A DNA stretch of 32,000 nucleotides. Source: Methanocaldococcus jannaschii DSM 2661 (GTDB lineage Archaea; AGJL01; Methanococci; Methanococcales; Methanocaldococcaceae). Of the stretch, positions 1,386 to 20,843 are shown in pieces; within the stretch, counting starts at the first letter, position 1, and each line of letters opens with the position of its first letter. The DNA is taken from NCBI RefSeq assembly GCF_000091665.1, contig NC_000909.1, positions 90,870 through 122,869 on the forward strand. Reading direction: 5' to 3'. The notes under the pieces are model-generated. The model made no database searches, had not been told where the DNA came from, and worked only from the letters and a program-made list of their open reading frames with translations. Position numbers and translations under genes: made by a program.

Positions 1386-1662
1386 TATTTTATTCCAGAA
1401 ATCTGATTTTGCGATATTTTGTTTAAATTGTTTCCATTCCGAAACGGTCTGATTTTAATAAATTTGCAAGCAGAATTCCCATATAATAAAATTAGTTTCC
1501 ATCCTCTAAGAGGTCTTATTTTAATAAAATCATGCCAAAACAGAAGATTGATAAGGATAAAGATTTCCATCCTCCAAGAGGTCTTATTTTAATTGTTACT
1601 CTACCTGTTTTTGCCGTGATTTCTCTACCTAATTTCCATCCTCCAAGAGGTCTTATTTTAAT
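1386..1662 (-). CRISPR. CRISPR array 1: 5 repeats (1 degenerate), 4 spacers, two repeat variants, no cas genes in window
   Basis: Repeats on the + strand: 1386-1413 (degenerate), 1430-1459 GTTTCCATTCCGAAACGGTCTGATTTTAAT (30 nt), 1495-1525, 1563-1593 and 1632-1662 (A/G)TTTCCATCCTC(T/C)AAGAGGTCTTATTTTAAT (31 nt). Spacers are 16, 35, 37 and 38 nt and unrelated to each other. Orientation is inferred from the leader at the high-coordinate side and repeat decay at the far end. Confidence 0.9.
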
Positions 1663-6294: not shown

Positions 6295-6556
6295 AAAATG
6301 GTGCCGAGGGAGGGATACAAACGAAACTTTTAGAAAAAGTTAAACAAAATCTTTCAGATTTTGTAGCCCGAAGCTAACGCTTCGGTTAAATGAAAACTAA
6401 AAGAGTTTTCATAGCTGGAAAGCGTAGCTTTCCATTTCATCAAAATAGGATGCATTGCCTCGCTACGCTCGGCAATGCCTCTTAAAAGAAAGTGGGGTTG
6501 CCTCTGGCAACCCTGCTCTGAGTATCCCAATAGGGCGAAGCCCTATGGAATAAAAA
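6295..6556. repeat. hairpin cassette H2 plus a duplicated tRNA-Met 3' end (att-like)
   Basis: The 22-nt direct repeat AAAATGGTGCCGAGGGAGGGAT occurs at 6295-6316 and 6553-6574. Between them are at least 8 consecutive stem-loops, e.g. ACAAAATCT-ttc-AGATTTTGT, CCGAAGC-taac-GCTTCGG, ATGAAAACT-aaaag-AGTTTTCAT, TGGAAAGC-gta-GCTTTCCA, GCATTGCC-(11)-GGCAATGC, GGGTTGCC-tct-GGCAACCC, CCCAATAGGG-cgaa-GCCCTATGG. Confidence 0.85.
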
Positions 6557-6668
6557 TGGTGCCGAGGGAGGGATTCGAACCCTCGACCTCCCGGTTTCCC
6601 AGGACCCAGGCGTAAAGCCTGGGATATCCGTATGAGCCGGGCGCTATAACCAGCTAAGCCACCTCGGC
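6557..6668 (-). tRNA. tRNA-Met (anticodon CAU) with a ~35-nt intron 3' of position 37; CCA encoded. An Ile2-type CAU tRNA cannot be excluded.
   Basis: The reverse complement reads GCCGAGGTGGCTTAGCTGGTTATAGCGCCCGGCTCATA[intron]ACCGGGAGGTCGAGGGTTCGAATCCCTCCCTCGGCACCA. Acceptor, D, anticodon and T arms all pair. Confidence 0.9.
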
Positions 6669-6759: not shown

Positions 6760-6847
6760 GCGGGGGTCGCCAAGCCAGGTCAAAGGCGCCAGATTGAGGG
6801 TCTGGTCCCGTAGGGGTTCGCGGGTTCAAATCCCGTCCCCCGCACCA
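6760..6847 (+). tRNA. tRNA-Leu (anticodon GAG), long variable arm, CCA encoded
   Basis: GCGGGGGTCGCCAAGCCAGGTCAAAGGCGCCAGATTGAGGGTCTGGTCCCGTAGGGGTTCGCGGGTTCAAATCCCGTCCCCCGCACCA folds as a class II cloverleaf. Confidence 0.93.
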
Positions 6848-6962
6848 AATATTTGATAGCGGGTTAGAAGAGGCATTGCTTCCATTAGGAAGCAATGTAT
6901 CCTGGGTATAGCAATAGGGCGAAGCCCTATGCTTTAAACCCCATCCCCCGCACCAAATATTT
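6848..6962. repeat. hairpin cassette H3 plus a duplicated tRNA-Leu 3' end (att-like)
   Basis: The 19-nt direct repeat TCCCCCGCACCAAATATTT occurs at 6837-6855 and 6944-6962. The insert contains GCATTGCTTCC-atta-GGAAGCAATG and GCAATAGGG-cgaa-GCCCTATGC stem-loops. Confidence 0.85.
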
Positions 6963-10774: not shown

Positions 10775-10964
10775 GGACATTAATTGGGACTGAAAGTCCC
10801 AACTTAATGGACGTGTGGTATCCACACCATAAAGGGGCTACGCCCCTCTTGGGATACTCCCCTAATATTGCTAATTTACACCTCCGAGCATAAGCGAGGA
10901 GGTGTTAGGTTTTGATGAACCTTTTACTAAAAGGTTCATACCAATAGGAGGTTTCCTCCTATGG
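10775..10964. repeat. hairpin cassette H4 (longest full copy), abutting the stop codon of the PAC2-like gene
   Basis: Modules: GGACATTAATTG-GGAC-tgaaa-GTCC-CAACTTAATGGAC (10775-10812), GTGTGG-tat-CCACAC, AGGGGC-tac-GCCCCT, ACACCTCC-(12)-GGAGGTGT, ATGAACCTTTT-act-AAAAGGTTCAT, CCAATAGGAGG-ttt-CCTCCTATGG (10941-10964). Confidence 0.85.
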
Positions 10965-10967
10965 TAG

Positions 10968-11863: not shown

Positions 11864-13429
11864 ATGAAAATTCTAATAATCACTGGAAAATTAGCTGAAA
11901 GGAAAGTTAAAGATGCTGTGAAAAAATATGATTTTATAGATGTGCATGTAGCAAATATCTCTGTAGCTGCTTTTTTAACACCTAATTTAATAATTAAAGA
12001 AATTAAAAAATTAGAAAACAAATTAGGAAAAAAATTAAAAGATATTTATGATTTTGTTTTAGTAACTGGGTTGATAAGACATGATTTAAAGAATGTTGAG
12101 GAAGAAACCGGAATAAAATGCTTTAAATCTACAAGAGAAGCTTCTGATATTCCAATATTGATTGAAAATCTGGATAAGATAAAACTATCAACTAAAGAGT
12201 ATGCCGATTTGCAGTTATTAGAAATTATTAGAAAGAAATGTGAGGAGGAGATTAAGAAAGCAGAGGAGCAGGAATTAGGAGAAGGAGATATAAAGATAGG
12301 CAAATTAAAAGTTGGAGATAAATTCCCAATGAGAGTTTTGGGAGAGATAGTCCATGCCCCATGGCTAAAAGAGAAAGAGTTGGAGGAGAAAATAATATAT
12401 TACTTAGAAAGTGGGGCTGATATGATTGATTTGGGAATGGTTAGCAATGAAAATAATGCAGATAAAATTAAAGATATGCTAAAGATAGCGAGAGATTTAA
12501 CTGACAATCCAATTAGTGTAGATACATTAAACACAAAAGAATTAATTGAGGCAATAAATTTAGGGGCAGATATGATTTTGAGTGTTGATGCTGGGAATTT
12601 AGATGAGCTAATTCCATATTTAAAAGATTCAGAAACGGCAGTTGTTGTTCTGCCAACAAATTATAAAACAAACTATGTCCCAGAGACTATTGAAGGCAAA
12701 ATTAAATCCTTAGAGGAGAATATAAAAAAGCTAATAGATGCTGGAATTGAAAAAATAGTTGCTGACCCAATATTAGAGCCAATAAACAATGCCGGATGCA
12801 GTTTTATAGAGAGCGTTATTGCATGTAGAGAATTTAAAAAAAGAAATAAATTGCCACTATTTTTTGGTGTTGGAAATGTTACAGAGCTTTTTGATGCTGA
12901 TAGTAATGGAGTCAATGCTTTGTTAGCAGCTATTGGGGCTGAGATTGGAGCTAATATATTATTTACACCAGAGGCAAGTGCTAAGTGTAAATTTTCAATA
13001 AAAGAGTTAAAGATTGCCTCAAAGATGATGTTTTTGGCTAAAAAAAGGAACTCTCTGCCAAAGGATATTGGCTACAATTTGATAAATTATAAGGATAAAA
13101 GATTTGAGGAGGAAATAACCTTCAATAGTTACAATATCCCAATAATTAAAGCTGAAGAAGATGAGAGGCAGATATTGGATGAAGGAAGTTTTAAAATAGA
13201 AATTGATAGGAAGAACAAAGAGATAGTAGCAATATACTTTAATAAAAGAAGAGAACCAGTTTTAATAATTAGAGGAAAGAAACCAAAAGAAATTTATGAA
13301 ACCGCGATAAGATTAAATTTAATAAAAAAGTTAGACCATGCATCTTATTTTGGTAGAGAGTTAGCTAAGGCAGAGATTGCTTTAAGGATAGGTAAAAAAT
13401 ACAATCAGGACTTTGATTTGTTCCTATAA
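11864..13429 (+). CDS. dihydropteroate synthase-like pterin-binding protein (pterin/methanopterin metabolism)
   Basis: The central region has DHPS-type TIM-barrel signatures (GADMIDLG, VDTLN, GADMILSV, GVGNVTELFDADS). The ORF-track start is TTG at 11852; ATG at 11864 follows GAGGGAG. Confidence 0.7.
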   Translation: MKILIITGKLAERKVKDAVKKYDFIDVHVANISVAAFLTPNLIIKEIKKLENKLGKKLKDIYDFVLVTGLIRHDLKNVEEETGIKCFKSTREASDIPILIENLDKIKLSTKEYADLQLLEIIRKKCEEEIKKAEEQELGEGDIKIGKLKVGDKFPMRVLGEIVHAPWLKEKELEEKIIYYLESGADMIDLGMVSNENNADKIKDMLKIARDLTDNPISVDTLNTKELIEAINLGADMILSVDAGNLDELIPYLKDSETAVVVLPTNYKTNYVPETIEGKIKSLEENIKKLIDAGIEKIVADPILEPINNAGCSFIESVIACREFKKRNKLPLFFGVGNVTELFDADSNGVNALLAAIGAEIGANILFTPEASAKCKFSIKELKIASKMMFLAKKRNSLPKDIGYNLINYKDKRFEEEITFNSYNIPIIKAEEDERQILDEGSFKIEIDRKNKEIVAIYFNKRREPVLIIRGKKPKEIYETAIRLNLIKKLDHASYFGRELAKAEIALRIGKKYNQDFDLFL

Positions 13430-14791: not shown

Positions 14792-15550
14792 TTATAAGAG
14801 GTCTAAAATTATATCTAACATTTCTTTGCTATTTGCTACAATAATATTCAATCTATCTGTTGCATTTAGGTCAAATTTCAGTTCATCTCCATTTTCATCT
14901 GTTATTAAGGCTCCTGCTTCTTTGCAGATTATATATGATGAGGCAATATCAACAGCTCTAACCTTAGGTCTTACATCAAAAACAGCATCTAAAGTCCCTT
15001 TAGCTACATAACACATTTCTAAACCAAAAGCTCCAAATATTCTCACTCTTTTAACTTTGTTCCTTAATTTTTCTAAATCTATTTTTTTGCTTGGATAGTA
15101 GCTTATAACTATATTATTTGGATTGAAGTCTTTAACTTTAATCTTTCTTCCGTTTAAATAAGCTCCTTTTCCTTTATATGCCTCATAAAAACTTTTAGTT
15201 AAAAATTCGTAGGTTAAGCCATAATATGGCTCATTATTTTTAAATACTCCAAAGCAGAATGCAAAAAATGGAATTCCATTTATAAAATTAAAAGAACCAT
15301 CTATTGGGTCAATAACTACAGTCCATTCGCTACTGTTATCTATAACACCCAACTCTTCACTCACGATATTAACATTCAGCGATTTTAAATATTTTAAGGC
15401 AATATCTTCACTAATTTTGTCAAAAATTTCTGTTTCATCTCCGCTTGGAGAAGTTCCAACAACGTAAGATTTATCTTTTCTTCCAAAATATGGTAAAATT
15501 TCTTTTTCAATCTCTTTTGCAATATTTTTCCCAATTTCATCCCATTTCAT
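14792..15550 (-). CDS. suhB: bifunctional inositol-1-monophosphatase / fructose-1,6-bisphosphatase (IMPase family)
   Basis: 252 aa with WTVVIDPIDGSFNF (DPIDG motif). The sequence matches what I recall of the structurally characterised M. jannaschii enzyme. Confidence 0.93.
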   Translation of the reverse strand: MKWDEIGKNIAKEIEKEILPYFGRKDKSYVVGTSPSGDETEIFDKISEDIALKYLKSLNVNIVSEELGVIDNSSEWTVVIDPIDGSFNFINGIPFFAFCFGVFKNNEPYYGLTYEFLTKSFYEAYKGKGAYLNGRKIKVKDFNPNNIVISYYPSKKIDLEKLRNKVKRVRIFGAFGLEMCYVAKGTLDAVFDVRPKVRAVDIASSYIICKEAGALITDENGDELKFDLNATDRLNIIVANSKEMLDIILDLL

Positions 15551-15610
15551 TTTCTCATCCTATGCTTTATTTTTAAATTTAAATATACAAAATAAGATAA
15601 TAGTCAATAT

Positions 15611-15661
15611 CTAAGATTTCTTCATCTCTTCCTTTATTTTAAGATAGGTTATCGGTATCGC
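15611..15661 (-). pseudogene. relic duplicate of the last ~15 codons plus stop of the adjacent SemiSWEET-like gene
   Basis: The minus strand translates ..IPITYLKIKEEMKKS*, against IPITYLKIRDEMRKS* for the intact gene end (15742-15792). The match is ~78% nt identity, gap-free and codon-phased, and all three aa changes are conservative. Confidence 0.7.
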
Positions 15662-15741
15662 AAGCATATAGAGGAACCTCTATTACTATACTCCGAGTGG
15701 GCTTTACTATGTTCAGCCCCACTTTCTATATTTAGCTTTCA
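15662..15741. repeat. hairpin cassette H5 between the SemiSWEET-like gene end and its relic copy
   Basis: ATAGAGG-aa-CCTCTAT and AGTGGGC-(13)-GCCCCACT stem-loops form a GC-rich island in AT-rich spacer. Confidence 0.65.
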
Positions 15742-16011
15742 TTAAGATTTTCTCATCTCATCTCTTATTTTCAAATAAGTTATCGGTATCCAAAACATTA
15801 AAGACAAAATGTTAAATACTATTATTGGGTAATCATTTCTTAATATTCCATATATTAACCAGAGTGTCAGTCCAGTTGTGAATGTTATAACAAAAGCTAA
15901 TGAGATGTTGCTCATATCTTTCTCCTTCAAAGACTTTATTAATTGGGGGAGAGATGCAAAGGTTGTTAAAGTTCCAGCAATATAGCCGATAACAGTTATA
16001 TCAAAGTCCAT
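15742..16011 (-). CDS. SemiSWEET / PQ-loop (MtN3-like) small membrane protein, 3 TM helices
   Basis: 89 aa from ATG 16011 (GGTGAT SD; the ORF-track GTG is at 16023). The motif is LTTFASLPQLIKSLKEKDMSNISL...LWLIYG...N. Confidence 0.8.
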   Translation of the reverse strand: MDFDITVIGYIAGTLTTFASLPQLIKSLKEKDMSNISLAFVITFTTGLTLWLIYGILRNDYPIIVFNILSLMFWIPITYLKIRDEMRKS

Positions 16012-16088
16012 ATTAATCACCACAAATGTTATAAATTTTAAAAGAGTTTGTTAAAATTTACCAACTTATATAGGTATAGGTGGGATAA

Positions 16089-17382: not shown

Positions 17383-17483
17383 ATTTTTATTCCATATTGG
17401 TCTGATTTTAATGAAATGTTTATTCTTGGAGAGCCACACATTATTTGTGATGAGTTTCCATTCCGAATCGGTCTGATTTTAAT
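17383..17483 (-). CRISPR. CRISPR mini-array 2: 2 repeats (one degenerate), 1 spacer, with full leader
   Basis: 17454-17483 is GTTTCCATTCCGAATCGGTCTGATTTTAAT. 17383-17412 is ATTTTTATTCCATATTGGTCTGATTTTAAT (6 mismatches). The spacer is 41 nt (17413-17453). Confidence 0.8.
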
Positions 17484-19288: not shown

Positions 19289-19391
19289 TCTATCACCTTT
19301 AGATTAATAATTACAATTATATTACAATTTTATGCCTTTGCCACAATCTAATCGTAGTTGTTGGTGTTTATCTTACGTATTTAACTAAGCT

Positions 19392-19465
19392 TGGACATTA
19401 ATTGGGGCTGATAGCCCCAACTTAATGGACGGGAGGTATCCCAATAGGAGGTCTCCTCCTATGGG
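19392..19465. repeat. hairpin cassette H6 (minimal two-module copy) between cdhD and cdhE, overlapping the cdhD stop codon
   Basis: GGACATTAATTG-GGGC-tgata-GCCC-CAACTTAATGGAC (19392-19429) and CCCCAATAGGAGG-tct-CCTCCTATGGG (19438-19465). Confidence 0.85.
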
Positions 19466-20646
19466 CTGACAATCCACTCATAGTTGTTTGTGTTTAGTTT
19501 AACCTCTCCTGGCTTGGTTGTTAGAGTTTTTCCAATCTCTTTCAGTGTTTTAACTGATATTGGATTGAGCATCATGAATAAATCTACTCCACACATCATC
19601 ATCGTAATTCCAGTAGTTATTTCCCATAATGGTAATCTATACTCTCTTGGCCCCCATTCAGGATTGTTCATCCATGCCTCTCTTGCTCCAATAGCGTTTG
19701 TTGTTCCAGATGACATTGGCATATTAACCAACTCATCTCCCTTCAATCCATTTAATCTTAATCTAACCATTGCGTTGATTGAGAACTCAATCCCATAACC
19801 TAAAGCACATGTTGTTGGATCCATAACTATTCTATTTGGGTCCAAACCAGCTTCAACAAGTTTTCTATTTAAATCTCTCGCCATATTTGGGTCCATAATA
19901 CTCCATGCTAATACGTTGTGGTCATATTTCATAGCTGCATCAACTATCTTTTTATAATCCAACTCCAAGTTTGCTGAAGCTAATAAGCATCTATCTCCTT
20001 CTGCTACTTCAGCACATGCTTCCAAAACTAAAGGGTCTTTTTGAGGATTTCCACTACCTCCAATAACAAATGGAACATCAACTGCCTGTAATAAATCTTC
20101 CATTAATTTTGCAGCTTCTTTTGGACTTTTATCTTTAATTTTTGGGTCTGTGGAGATGTGGTGAATTGTTATCATATCTGCCCCAAATTCTTTAACACAC
20201 TTCTTTGCCCATTCGCAAGGGTCTTCCATAACATCCTGGAAAAACTGCCTAATTGGTTTTGGTAATCCTGGCATTGGTATATCGAATATATCGAAAGTAA
20301 CAACTGGTGGATTTGGCTGTGGTTCTTCAAATCTATATAAAGCTCTCTGTCCCCCAATTTTCACAACTTTTCCTCTTCCTCCTTCTGATTTTGGTTTTCC
20401 AAATTGGACTTCTCTTATATATCCAGGATATTTTTCAACTGGTGGTTCCCAATCTAACTCTGGGACATCTTTAATTTCTATAATTCCTTCTTCAGCCAAT
20501 TTTTCTTTTATTGATGGTGTTTGAGGAATAACTATTGGAGGGGCTGATGGGATATTTATAATTAATTCATCTGCGGTGATTTTTATATCCTCAATCTCAA
20601 TTCTACCAACTTTTTCAATGATTTTTATCAAAGTATTTAAATCCAT
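19459..20646 (-). CDS. cdhD: acetyl-CoA decarbonylase/synthase delta subunit (corrinoid/Fe-S protein small subunit)
   Basis: Family-typical sequence throughout. The ORF-track start at 20676 is possible, but ATG at 20646 follows a strong GGTGAGG SD. Confidence 0.92.
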   Translation of the reverse strand: MDLNTLIKIIEKVGRIEIEDIKITADELIINIPSAPPIVIPQTPSIKEKLAEEGIIEIKDVPELDWEPPVEKYPGYIREVQFGKPKSEGGRGKVVKIGGQRALYRFEEPQPNPPVVTFDIFDIPMPGLPKPIRQFFQDVMEDPCEWAKKCVKEFGADMITIHHISTDPKIKDKSPKEAAKLMEDLLQAVDVPFVIGGSGNPQKDPLVLEACAEVAEGDRCLLASANLELDYKKIVDAAMKYDHNVLAWSIMDPNMARDLNRKLVEAGLDPNRIVMDPTTCALGYGIEFSINAMVRLRLNGLKGDELVNMPMSSGTTNAIGAREAWMNNPEWGPREYRLPLWEITTGITMMMCGVDLFMMLNPISVKTLKEIGKTLTTKPGEVKLNTNNYEWIVSP

Positions 20647-20843
20647 AACCTCACCCAATCTGTCATTATAAATCATTATAGATTAAGATTAAGTTATTAC
20701 CAAACTTCATATATAAACGTTATTATTTCAATTTTTTAAAGGAAAATTTCTAAAAAATAAAAAATATTTTATTTTATCTTAAATTGACAAACAGTATTCG
20801 TTATTAGATATTTTAATAGCTATATTACATTTTGTATGAAAAA

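Follow-up and report, generated by a model that had tools for sequence, protein, structure and literature searches.

How a protein gene comes to possess a second copy of its own 3' end, set apart from the first by only a short block of GC-rich hairpins, is the question raised by MJ0110, a SemiSWEET/PQ-loop transporter gene of Methanocaldococcus jannaschii DSM 2661. The gene lies in the 32-kb window analysed here, the whole stretch of DNA to which all coordinates refer. A sequence-only reading of the window had reported that the last 16 codons and stop of MJ0110 recur at 15611-15661, gap-free and with 11 differences over 51 nt (78% identity), and had proposed that an incoming element displaced the resident gene end. 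Our analysis confirms the observation and supports the interpretation in part. We describe the MJ0110 3' region, with moderate confidence, as a stack of three generations in which the working gene end (copy A), a hairpin element, a displaced former end (copy B), the remnant of an older element and the oldest end (copy C) follow one another. An old insertion, followed by the addition of the A/B unit through unequal recombination, is the best explanation for the whole, and in our judgement has about an even chance of being right.

Three copies of the MJ0110 gene end

The features concerned, read along the minus strand from the transporter gene towards its 3' neighbour, are as follows.

15742-16023, minus strand: MJ0110 (MJ_0110), SemiSWEET/PQ-loop transporter gene, from the open reading frame (ORF) list, with a 100% match to MJ_0110 and Pfam matches to PQ-loop and MtN3_slv.
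15742-15798, minus strand: copy A, the working 3' end, ..MFWIPITYLKIRDEMRKS and stop, the stop codon TAA at 15742-15744 (translation, alignment and repeat search).
15662-15741, minus strand: GC-rich hairpin repeat element 'hp2', 80 nt, TGAAAGCTAAATATAG-AAAGTGGGGCT..AGCCCACT-CGGAGTATAGT-AATAGAGGTTCCTCTAT-ATGCTTGC in the minus-strand reading (sequence reading, folding and module search).
15611-15667, minus strand: copy B, the displaced former gene end, ..AIPITYLKIKEEMKKS and stop, the stop codon TAG at 15611-15613 (translation, alignment, repeat search and relatives).
15586-15610, minus strand: remnant of an older element, 25 nt, ATATTGA followed by CTATTATCTTATTTTGTA, with a longer version in locus L021 of a related lineage (alignment with L021).
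15547-15585, minus strand: copy C, the oldest gene-end relic, TATTTAAATTTAAAAATAAAGCATAGGATGAGAAAATGA (repeat search, family D1, and comparison with loci L001 and L030).
14792-15550, minus strand: MJ0109, inositol-monophosphatase family gene, 3' of MJ0110 on the same strand.

MJ0110 encodes 93 amino acids from its GTG or 89 from its ATG. On the minus strand 15742-15801 translates as LMFWIPITYLKIRDEMRKS and stop, and 15611-15661 as ...AIPITYLKIKEEMKKS and stop; the three amino-acid differences listed in the sequence-only reading (R/K, D/E and R/K) are conservative, as claimed there, and both copies end in a stop codon (TAA and TAG). In the repeat search the copies form a direct repeat of 56 nt (15612-15667 and 15743-15798) with 80% identity and a period of 131 nt, gap-free and in frame, and the duplicated part of MJ0110 amounts to its last 16-17 codons. 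Local alignment of one flank against the other scores 33, compared with a mean of 10.6 and a maximum of 19.5 for shuffled sequence (0/300 shuffles reach 33; p<0.003). Copies A and B share an identical 13-nt core, GATACCGATAAC, at the head of the repeat and diverge after it. Between them there is neither an integrase nor any other gene, the sole ORF in the ORF list being a chance ORF of 27 amino acids.

Copy C, overlooked in the sequence-only reading, adjoins the MJ0109 start codon, is more decayed than copy B and terminates in the ancestral TGA overlapping the MJ0109 ATG. The spacer between B and C holds TATATTTAAA at about 15575-15585. At the other end of the repeat, the 5' boundary of the duplicated segment is GGATACC (encoding W-I-P; 15654-15660 and 15785-15791), the reverse complement of GGTATCC, a conserved linker of the hairpin family to which hp2 belongs. 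This possible microhomology, a post hoc observation, may have guided the junction.

Orthologous loci and the former gene end

Orthologous loci from complete genomes, metagenome-assembled genomes and metagenome contigs were read from 'MFW' to the MJ0109 start. The SemiSWEET protein of Methanocaldococcus sp. 16A (L001) ends in ..KIKDEMRK, and the TGA of its gene overlaps the MJ0109 ATG to give ATGA; M. villosus (L030) has a junction of the same kind with a loss of 3 nt. The sequence of copy C is the working gene end in both, and these loci represent the insert-free, ancestral state, of which copy C of M. jannaschii is the remnant. With this ATGA overlap MJ0109 was ancestrally coupled in translation to MJ0110. 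The comparison of relatives that the sequence-only reading had called for has in this way found insert-free alleles, and the duplication is not identical in all relatives.

A new gene end, '..KK(A)S' followed by the stop (TCTTAG, TCTTAA or TCTTGA), is common to Methanocaldococcus sp. 28A (L002), L021, L031, L051 and both copies A and B of M. jannaschii. Beyond this end those lineages have a spacer, after which comes what is left of the old junction (..GAGATGAGAAAATGA/AATGG, where the slash marks the join), and sp. 28A retains the distal copy at full length (GATACC...AAAAAATGA). In the alignment with L021, copy B and everything downstream of it are colinear with that lineage's working end and the spacer behind it, the common features being TCTT(A)GATATTGA, CTAT(A/T)ATCT(T/A)ATT and the old junction. 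Because of this colinearity copy B is identified as a displaced former working end, and to that extent the proposed displacement of a resident end stands. The 25 nt after B share their left end, TATTGA, and their right end, the CTAT(A/T) motif just given, with L021, and are on this comparison what is left of an older element of the same type, of which L021 retains a longer version. Relative to an L021-like state, M. jannaschii has 131 extra nt, made up of copy A and the intact 80-nt element, at TTTTG/GATACC. The junction between element and relic, CTAT(AT)GCTTGC/GATACC, is identical in M. jannaschii, L002 and L051, in which the element bodies measure 80, 32 and 40 nt, and L006 has an element of the hp2 subclass in the opposite orientation.

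Copy B is composite. Its head follows the common junction, carries TAT CTT and matches the relic (Y) of L002 and L051; its tail, AAG AAA TCT TAG plus (A)TATTGA, matches the working ends of L002 and L021. Nine differences between A and B can be polarised with the other lineages, and seven of these changes lie on the working copy A (AAG>AGA twice, C/TTG, ACT and TAA among them) as opposed to two on the relic B, where a neutral copy B arising in situ would be expected to carry about three-quarters of them (P=0.0013). Copies A and B therefore resemble two alleles rather than a parent and its decaying copy.

Two further observations concern the gene end in the genus. In the protein alignment nearly all Methanocaldococcus lineages have a SemiSWEET C-terminal tail of their own, which begins to differ directly after YLKI(K/R)(D/E)E (loci L003/L004, L027, L028 and L046-L049). 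The remnant of the old ..GAGATGAGAAAATGA junction just 5' of the MJ0109 start is kept in most lineages, possibly as the ribosome-binding region of MJ0109.

A modular hairpin family at unrelated genes

The insert consists, as the sequence-only reading described it, of GC-rich hairpins only, namely two hairpins with linkers.

15668-15683, no strand assigned: terminal hairpin of hp2, ATAGAGG-AA-CCTCTAT, that is ATAGAGGAACCTCTAT (sequence reading and module search).
15696-15723, no strand assigned: inner imperfect GC-rich hairpin, AGTGGGCT...AGCCCCACT, a module of the AAAGTGGGG type found also at 6488-6515 and in L039 (folding).

The right-end module of hp2, GGAGTATAGTAATAG-stem-loop-stem-CTAT, is common to elements at 6912 (tRNA-Leu) and 6528, in L051, in L006 and elsewhere. 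In the form GGTAT..AATAG-stem-loop-stem-CTAT it occurs in 26 copies in 185 kb of window and loci, with 8 different stem sequences, all fully paired; the module is also written GGTATCCCAATAGG..CCTATGG. hp2, which carries both this end module and the AAAGTGGGG hairpin module, is a member of a modular Methanocaldococcus hairpin repeat family, and GC-rich hairpins mark 7 element sites in the window. The ends of hp2 show weak complementarity to one another (GAAAGCTAAATATAGA against the reverse complement GCAAGCATATAGAGG). A blastn-short search of hp2 against the window returned short module matches only; one of these, at 12405-12420, falls within a gene and is probably fortuitous. No Rfam family matched at gathering or E<=1 thresholds, and a scan of viral contigs for the end module gave 0 matches. 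Folded as RNA on either strand, hp2 forms the predicted hairpins at an ordinary energy (z=-1.06), and a stable RNA from hp2 is not claimed; a scan for bacterial-type promoters and terminators is uninformative for archaeal sequence.

By its description the insert is most likely an MJRE element, one of the palindromic repetitive elements MJRE1-3 of M. jannaschii (Suyama, Lathe & Bork 2005, FEBS Lett 579:5281; cited in PMC2229807). MJRE elements are described as likewise short, GC-rich, palindromic, hairpin-forming, multicopy, mostly extragenic and of low within-group identity, and a few run into coding regions with the frame intact, as at window position 19459. That description is not known to include 24-62-nt gene-end duplications, gene-end/element arrays or coding-like divergence. 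The association with long gene-end duplications may be previously unremarked, but the MJRE paper may have noted flanking repeats; our literature search found only citations of that paper.

The layout seen at MJ0110 recurs within the window, where flanking direct repeats are significant at 4/6 testable elements.

6825-6854 and 6933-6962, plus strand: 30-nt repeat of the 3' end plus 10 nt of trailer (TTCAAATCCCGTCCCCCGCACCAAATATTT) of tRNA-Leu (gene 6760-6847), 27/30 identity.
6295-6322 and 6553-6580, minus strand: 28-nt repeat of the 3' end plus 4 nt (AAAATGGTGCCGAGGGAGGGATTCGAAC) of an intron-containing tRNA (gene 6560-6668), 26/28 identity.
15612-15667 and 15743-15798, minus strand: the 56-nt repeat of MJ0110.
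19343-19375 and 19469-19501, minus strand: 33-nt repeat of the 3' end of ORF 19459-20676, the second protein-gene case.

The two tRNA duplications share 19-22 identical nt. The tRNA-Leu copies are separated by a 78-nt hairpin element of the MJ0110-insert subclass (..GGGTATAGCAATAGGGCGAAGCCCTATGCTTT), and those of the intron-containing tRNA by ~235 nt with at least five hairpin modules, a stretch that may be a collapsed array. ARAGORN calls the latter gene 'tRNA-Stop', owing to its intron. At ORF 19459-20676 the relic reads KINTNNYD and stop; in the working copy the TAG has become TGG, and the protein now continues as ..NTNNYEWIVSP and stop, ending in the CCTCCTATGG hairpin of the element at 19395-19465, which is reversed relative to the ORF. 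The search for further protein genes with displaced ends that the sequence-only reading had suggested has found this case and, in addition, metagenome loci. No flanking repeats are detectable at the elements at 95-172 and 10775-10965 (TTGGACATTAATTG..CAATAGGAGGNNNCCTCCTATGG type); the former lies at the window edge, the latter is a four-hairpin composite, and both abut gene stops (176 and 10968).

A metagenome scan with the end module CAATAGGAGGNNNCCTCCTATGG yielded 11 vent contigs, in nearly all of which the element sits between two copies of the last 10-16 codons and stop of the neighbouring gene. Over the window and metagenome loci the flanking repeats are imperfect, variable in length (24-62 nt) and often extend beyond the stop codon. 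The family is found at unrelated genes, each with its local duplication (trpB-like, RFC-like and ferredoxin-like genes, tRNAs and MJ0110), and in both orientations relative to the gene, being reversed at 19395-19465 in the window and in L036. Several of the contigs hold arrays of alternating gene ends and elements, which the repeat search confirms; L039 and L041 each have three gene-end copies and differing elements. In L039 the first and third copies are alike and the second has diverged, yet the head TGCTGG is common to the second and third. In L044 two 118-nt units are 100% identical and the working copy differs from them at four third positions, and the relic tails of L045 and L040 differ.

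Differences between copies, pooled over ten loci with shared events counted once, are distributed over codon positions 1, 2 and 3 as 5/12/42. The third-position share of 71% (42/59) exceeds both one third (P=3e-9) and the 47% expected with one copy constrained and the other neutral (P=1.5e-4), and the copies therefore diverged as working coding sequence. The sequence-only reading had claimed as much for MJ0110, and the pooled bias, together with the seven changes on A as against two on B, upholds the claim; at MJ0110 alone 6/9 differences fall at third positions, which is not significant. The pooled relics mostly keep their frame and stop codon. At the trpB-like gene end, L037 and L038 have diverged by 39% at third positions (400 codons compared), and the intergenic DNA of the two cannot be aligned; the relics, by comparison, differ at 3/36 nt (P=4e-5). 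In L044 the noncoding 89 nt of the unit are identical and all four third-position differences lie in the coding 42 nt (Fisher P=0.0096). Copies within a genome also share lineage-specific states, CCG/CCG versus CCA/CCA at MJ0110 and GGT/GGT versus GGA/GGA at trpB, and some in-situ duplication or gene conversion must therefore also occur. Taken as a whole these patterns fit poorly with a target duplicated identically and a relic that then decays neutrally. They speak for homologous exchange that was repeated, within lineages as well as between them, and had its breakpoints inside copies of the gene end.

Several observations on individual elements and neighbours may be recorded here. In L039 (7221-7620), the third copy of the gene end is followed by an element that unites the types of first hairpin found in the two elements before it (AGTGGGG and TAAGAGGCATT hairpins plus the end module), which suggests that multi-hairpin mosaics arise by deletion of relic gene ends from arrays. 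L040 (2582-2602) matches L045 with 98.5% identity as far as the relic of gene A, and from the next element onwards matches L035, with its RFC-like relic, with 99.1% identity; the cause is either a genuine rearrangement involving two loci that carry elements or an assembly chimera at the repeat. The ACCTCCGAGCG-type element starts directly after TTAC in L035, L037 and L044, not so at MJ0110, and the native downstream sequence of L044 also has ..CAATTTAC/A. SecD lies upstream of MJ0110 and is divergent from it, with a solitary CRISPR repeat match (17454-17483, minus strand) just 3' of it. Further CRISPR repeat matches are found at 1430-1459 (minus strand) and, three in number and under a different Rfam model, at 1495-1662 (plus strand); those at 1430-1662 and 17454-17483 may be mini-arrays or orphan repeats.

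Origin of the stacked gene ends

The proposed history starts from a SemiSWEET stop overlapping the MJ0109 start, ..GAG ATG AGA AAA TGA/ATG AAA TGG, as it survives in sp. 16A and, slightly modified, in M. villosus. A hairpin element would then have entered the ATGA junction and duplicated ~44 nt of gene end (GATACC...AAAAT). The proximal copy would have taken its new end, '..K K S' and stop, from the left edge of the element (AAA T/CT TAG), and the distal copy would have retained the ATGA junction before MJ0109; L002, L021, L031, L051 and M. jannaschii would descend from this event. In M. jannaschii only, an unequal homologous crossover may subsequently have joined gene-end copies of different alleles, one partner being the distal relic in an L051- or L002-like allele whose element was intact, and the other the working end in a diverged, L021-like allele whose element had by then decayed. 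The product would place the 131-nt unit, copy A with the 80-nt element, before the resident end, which would thereby have become relic B. Such alleles may have met because DNA passed from one lineage to another, or may have coexisted as a polymorphism of polyploid cells in one population. If A and the tail of B are two alleles that evolved as coding sequence, their differences would therefore be synonymous and conservative. Unequal crossover would be the simplest event to give the order of copy A, intact element, composite copy with relic head and working tail, decayed element and copy C.

A number of points weigh against this history. All ten M. jannaschii contigs are identical at the locus, without strain polymorphism, and neither a donor nor a recipient allele was directly seen among the loci compared. 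Species other than M. jannaschii are about equally distant (84-92% nucleotide identity), and because of this the order of events and the assignment of alleles depend on some 10 informative sites within 50 nt. A recombination breakpoint was sought in the affinities of the flanking genes, and the differences found, with the SemiSWEET body closest to L004 and MJ0109 closest to L021, are weak and non-significant. A and B both have CCG where L002 and L051 have CCA in either copy, a pattern that resembles in-situ duplication or gene conversion. The first step calls for an activity making a long target duplication, which the history does not explain mechanistically, and the coding-like state of the relics is not fully explained by it either. 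Lastly, some metagenome contigs are possibly chimeric at the repeats, with L040 a candidate.

The duplication might instead have arisen in situ, through staggered cuts ~50 nt apart made by an enzyme, with A and B identical at birth and diverging later within the M. jannaschii lineage. The arrangement of element between two gene ends is general, elements occur in either orientation to the gene, the repeats vary in length and often run past the stop codon, and copies within a genome share the CCG/CCA and GGT/GGA states; the AAA T/CT TAG junction moreover looks like a cut in the ATGA overlap, and long direct repeats of variable length are also a property of insertion sequences of the IS1634/IS1549 type, whose target duplications of tens to hundreds of bp vary between insertions. 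Those, however, are complete insertion sequences that possess a transposase and have repeats still fresh and identical, unlike the 40-235-nt non-coding hairpins and synonymous-site differences found here. An origin of A and B in situ is also at odds with the excess of polarised changes on A over the supposedly neutral B, with the third-position bias of the pooled differences, with relics better conserved between lineages than neutral DNA, with a single junction shared by three lineages that differ in element content, and with three-copy arrays whose outer copies are alike and whose middle copy has diverged. We consider it unlikely for the A/B event and more plausible for the first step. Much the same low probability attaches to a mobile unit of 131 nt that carries its own gene end with its hairpins and integrates at the homologous end in att-like fashion or by a Campbell-type single crossover of a circle. 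The 13-nt core followed by divergence, the duplicated tRNA 3' ends of the window (a classic integrative signature), the element/relic junction identical in three lineages and the coding-like divergence all fit such a unit, as does L044, where the first gene end differs and the spacer, element and remaining two ends are identical, as in the pop-in of a unit with a foreign end. Yet no integrase or other gene lies between the repeats, a double-stranded circle of 80-131 bp is physically awkward, the family occupies many unrelated genes, each with its own duplication and no common att site, and a separate process would be needed for the first unit of gene end and element at each locus. On these grounds, and given that the composite copy B fits unequal recombination better, the remaining part of the original proposal, in which hp2 itself integrates with its own copy of the gene end, is not supported as it stands; nothing shows such integration.

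Selection might alternatively have kept the relics as alternative 3' ends, as regulatory or 3'-untranslated elements, or as homology arms for spread. This would suit the trpB-end relics, conserved between lineages whose third positions have diverged widely and whose adjacent intergenic DNA is unalignable, and the frame and stop codon that relics usually keep. It is nonetheless very improbable: no frame joins the relics to a start, older relics (copy C, L006 and L021) clearly decay, with indels, the direct repeats are unable to pair as a splice-type structure and the RNA fold of the insert is ordinary. Splice-type removal through a BHB was itself rejected, as direct repeats cannot form the required helix. 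AT-rich sequence of low complexity, with its K, R and E codons, might produce chance similarity, and a whole tandem paralogue of MJ0110 might leave such remains, the latter being a possibility that the sequence-only reading had itself raised. The shuffling result speaks against the one; against the other, homology stops at the hairpin element, with none to the gene body beyond 15667, and the frame upstream of the relic (PLGV, three stops, RFLYMLA) is hairpin-element sequence rather than decayed paralogue. The same layout recurs at many loci, and this last pair of explanations is effectively refuted, with only the slightest probability left to it.

Known classes of mobile DNA resemble the MJ0110 array in part. 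Integrative elements with attL and attR likewise duplicate a gene or tRNA 3' end on both sides, leave the working gene intact, show an identical core and then divergence, and stack at one target. The insert here differs in consisting of 40-235 nt of hairpin modules without an integrase, at many unrelated targets with no common att sequence and in both orientations; an integrase-mediated element was rejected at MJ0110, where only 80 nt separate the copies. MITEs (miniature transposable elements with inverted repeats), repetitive extragenic palindromes (REP), BIME and IS200/IS605-derived elements (PATEs, REP-RAYT) are, similarly, non-coding, modular, hairpin-forming and intergenic, with mosaic clusters, here with an end module of covarying stems; the start after TTAC in L035, L037 and L044 is as for single-strand transposons of the IS608 type, and a two-hairpin architecture is present. 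MITEs make short target duplications of fixed length, and IS200/IS605, PATE and REP elements make none, in contrast to flanking repeats that are long, variable and specific to the gene end (28, 30, 33 and about 56 nt in the window; about 30-56 nt at metagenome loci). CRISPR and casposon origins are likewise set aside, since the duplicated length ranges over 24-62 nt between loci with no fixed ruler (a repeat of about 30-37 nt or a target-site duplication of 14-15 nt), and the genuine CRISPR repeats of the window are at other positions. Because these defining tests fail, the array is assigned to none of the integrative, MITE, CRISPR or casposon classes, and probably does not belong to the IS200/IS605/REP class either. 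Its organisation also recalls the orphan tips of Rhs and CdiA, in which the addition of a new end on the proximal side pushes the old one downstream with a piece of the conserved region, and CRISPR arrays with a different insert at each position. Unlike either, it has no toxin or immunity cargo and no ruler-fixed repeat, the repeat being the end of an ordinary housekeeping gene.

Beyond MJ0110, the unequal crossover proposed for copies A and B is one instance of recombination between duplicated gene ends, which would build, shuffle and presumably delete arrays. A broader suggestion, tentative and itself more probably wrong than right, is that the hairpin repeats are a distinct kind of mobile DNA in arrays of gene ends and elements, spreading among genome copies and lineages by homologous recombination with the duplicated gene ends as homology arms and no dedicated transposase, or else through an unknown enzyme that makes 24-62-nt target duplications. 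Transfers would refresh relics from working genes, and mosaic clusters would be collapsed arrays.

For annotation, the findings advise caution, as tRNA or gene fragments beside hairpin repeats are no evidence of integrated viruses or plasmids. If the arrangement proves genome-wide, it would offer a testable handle on how archaeal hairpin repeats of the REP/MITE kind insert and spread. It would also show how the C-termini of genes can be renewed, lengthened or exchanged and how translationally coupled genes come apart, as where the ATGA overlap of MJ0110 and MJ0109 has given way to a 191-nt spacer. Relic gene ends would in that case be 'fossil alleles', natural markers of recombination between lineages of vent methanogens.

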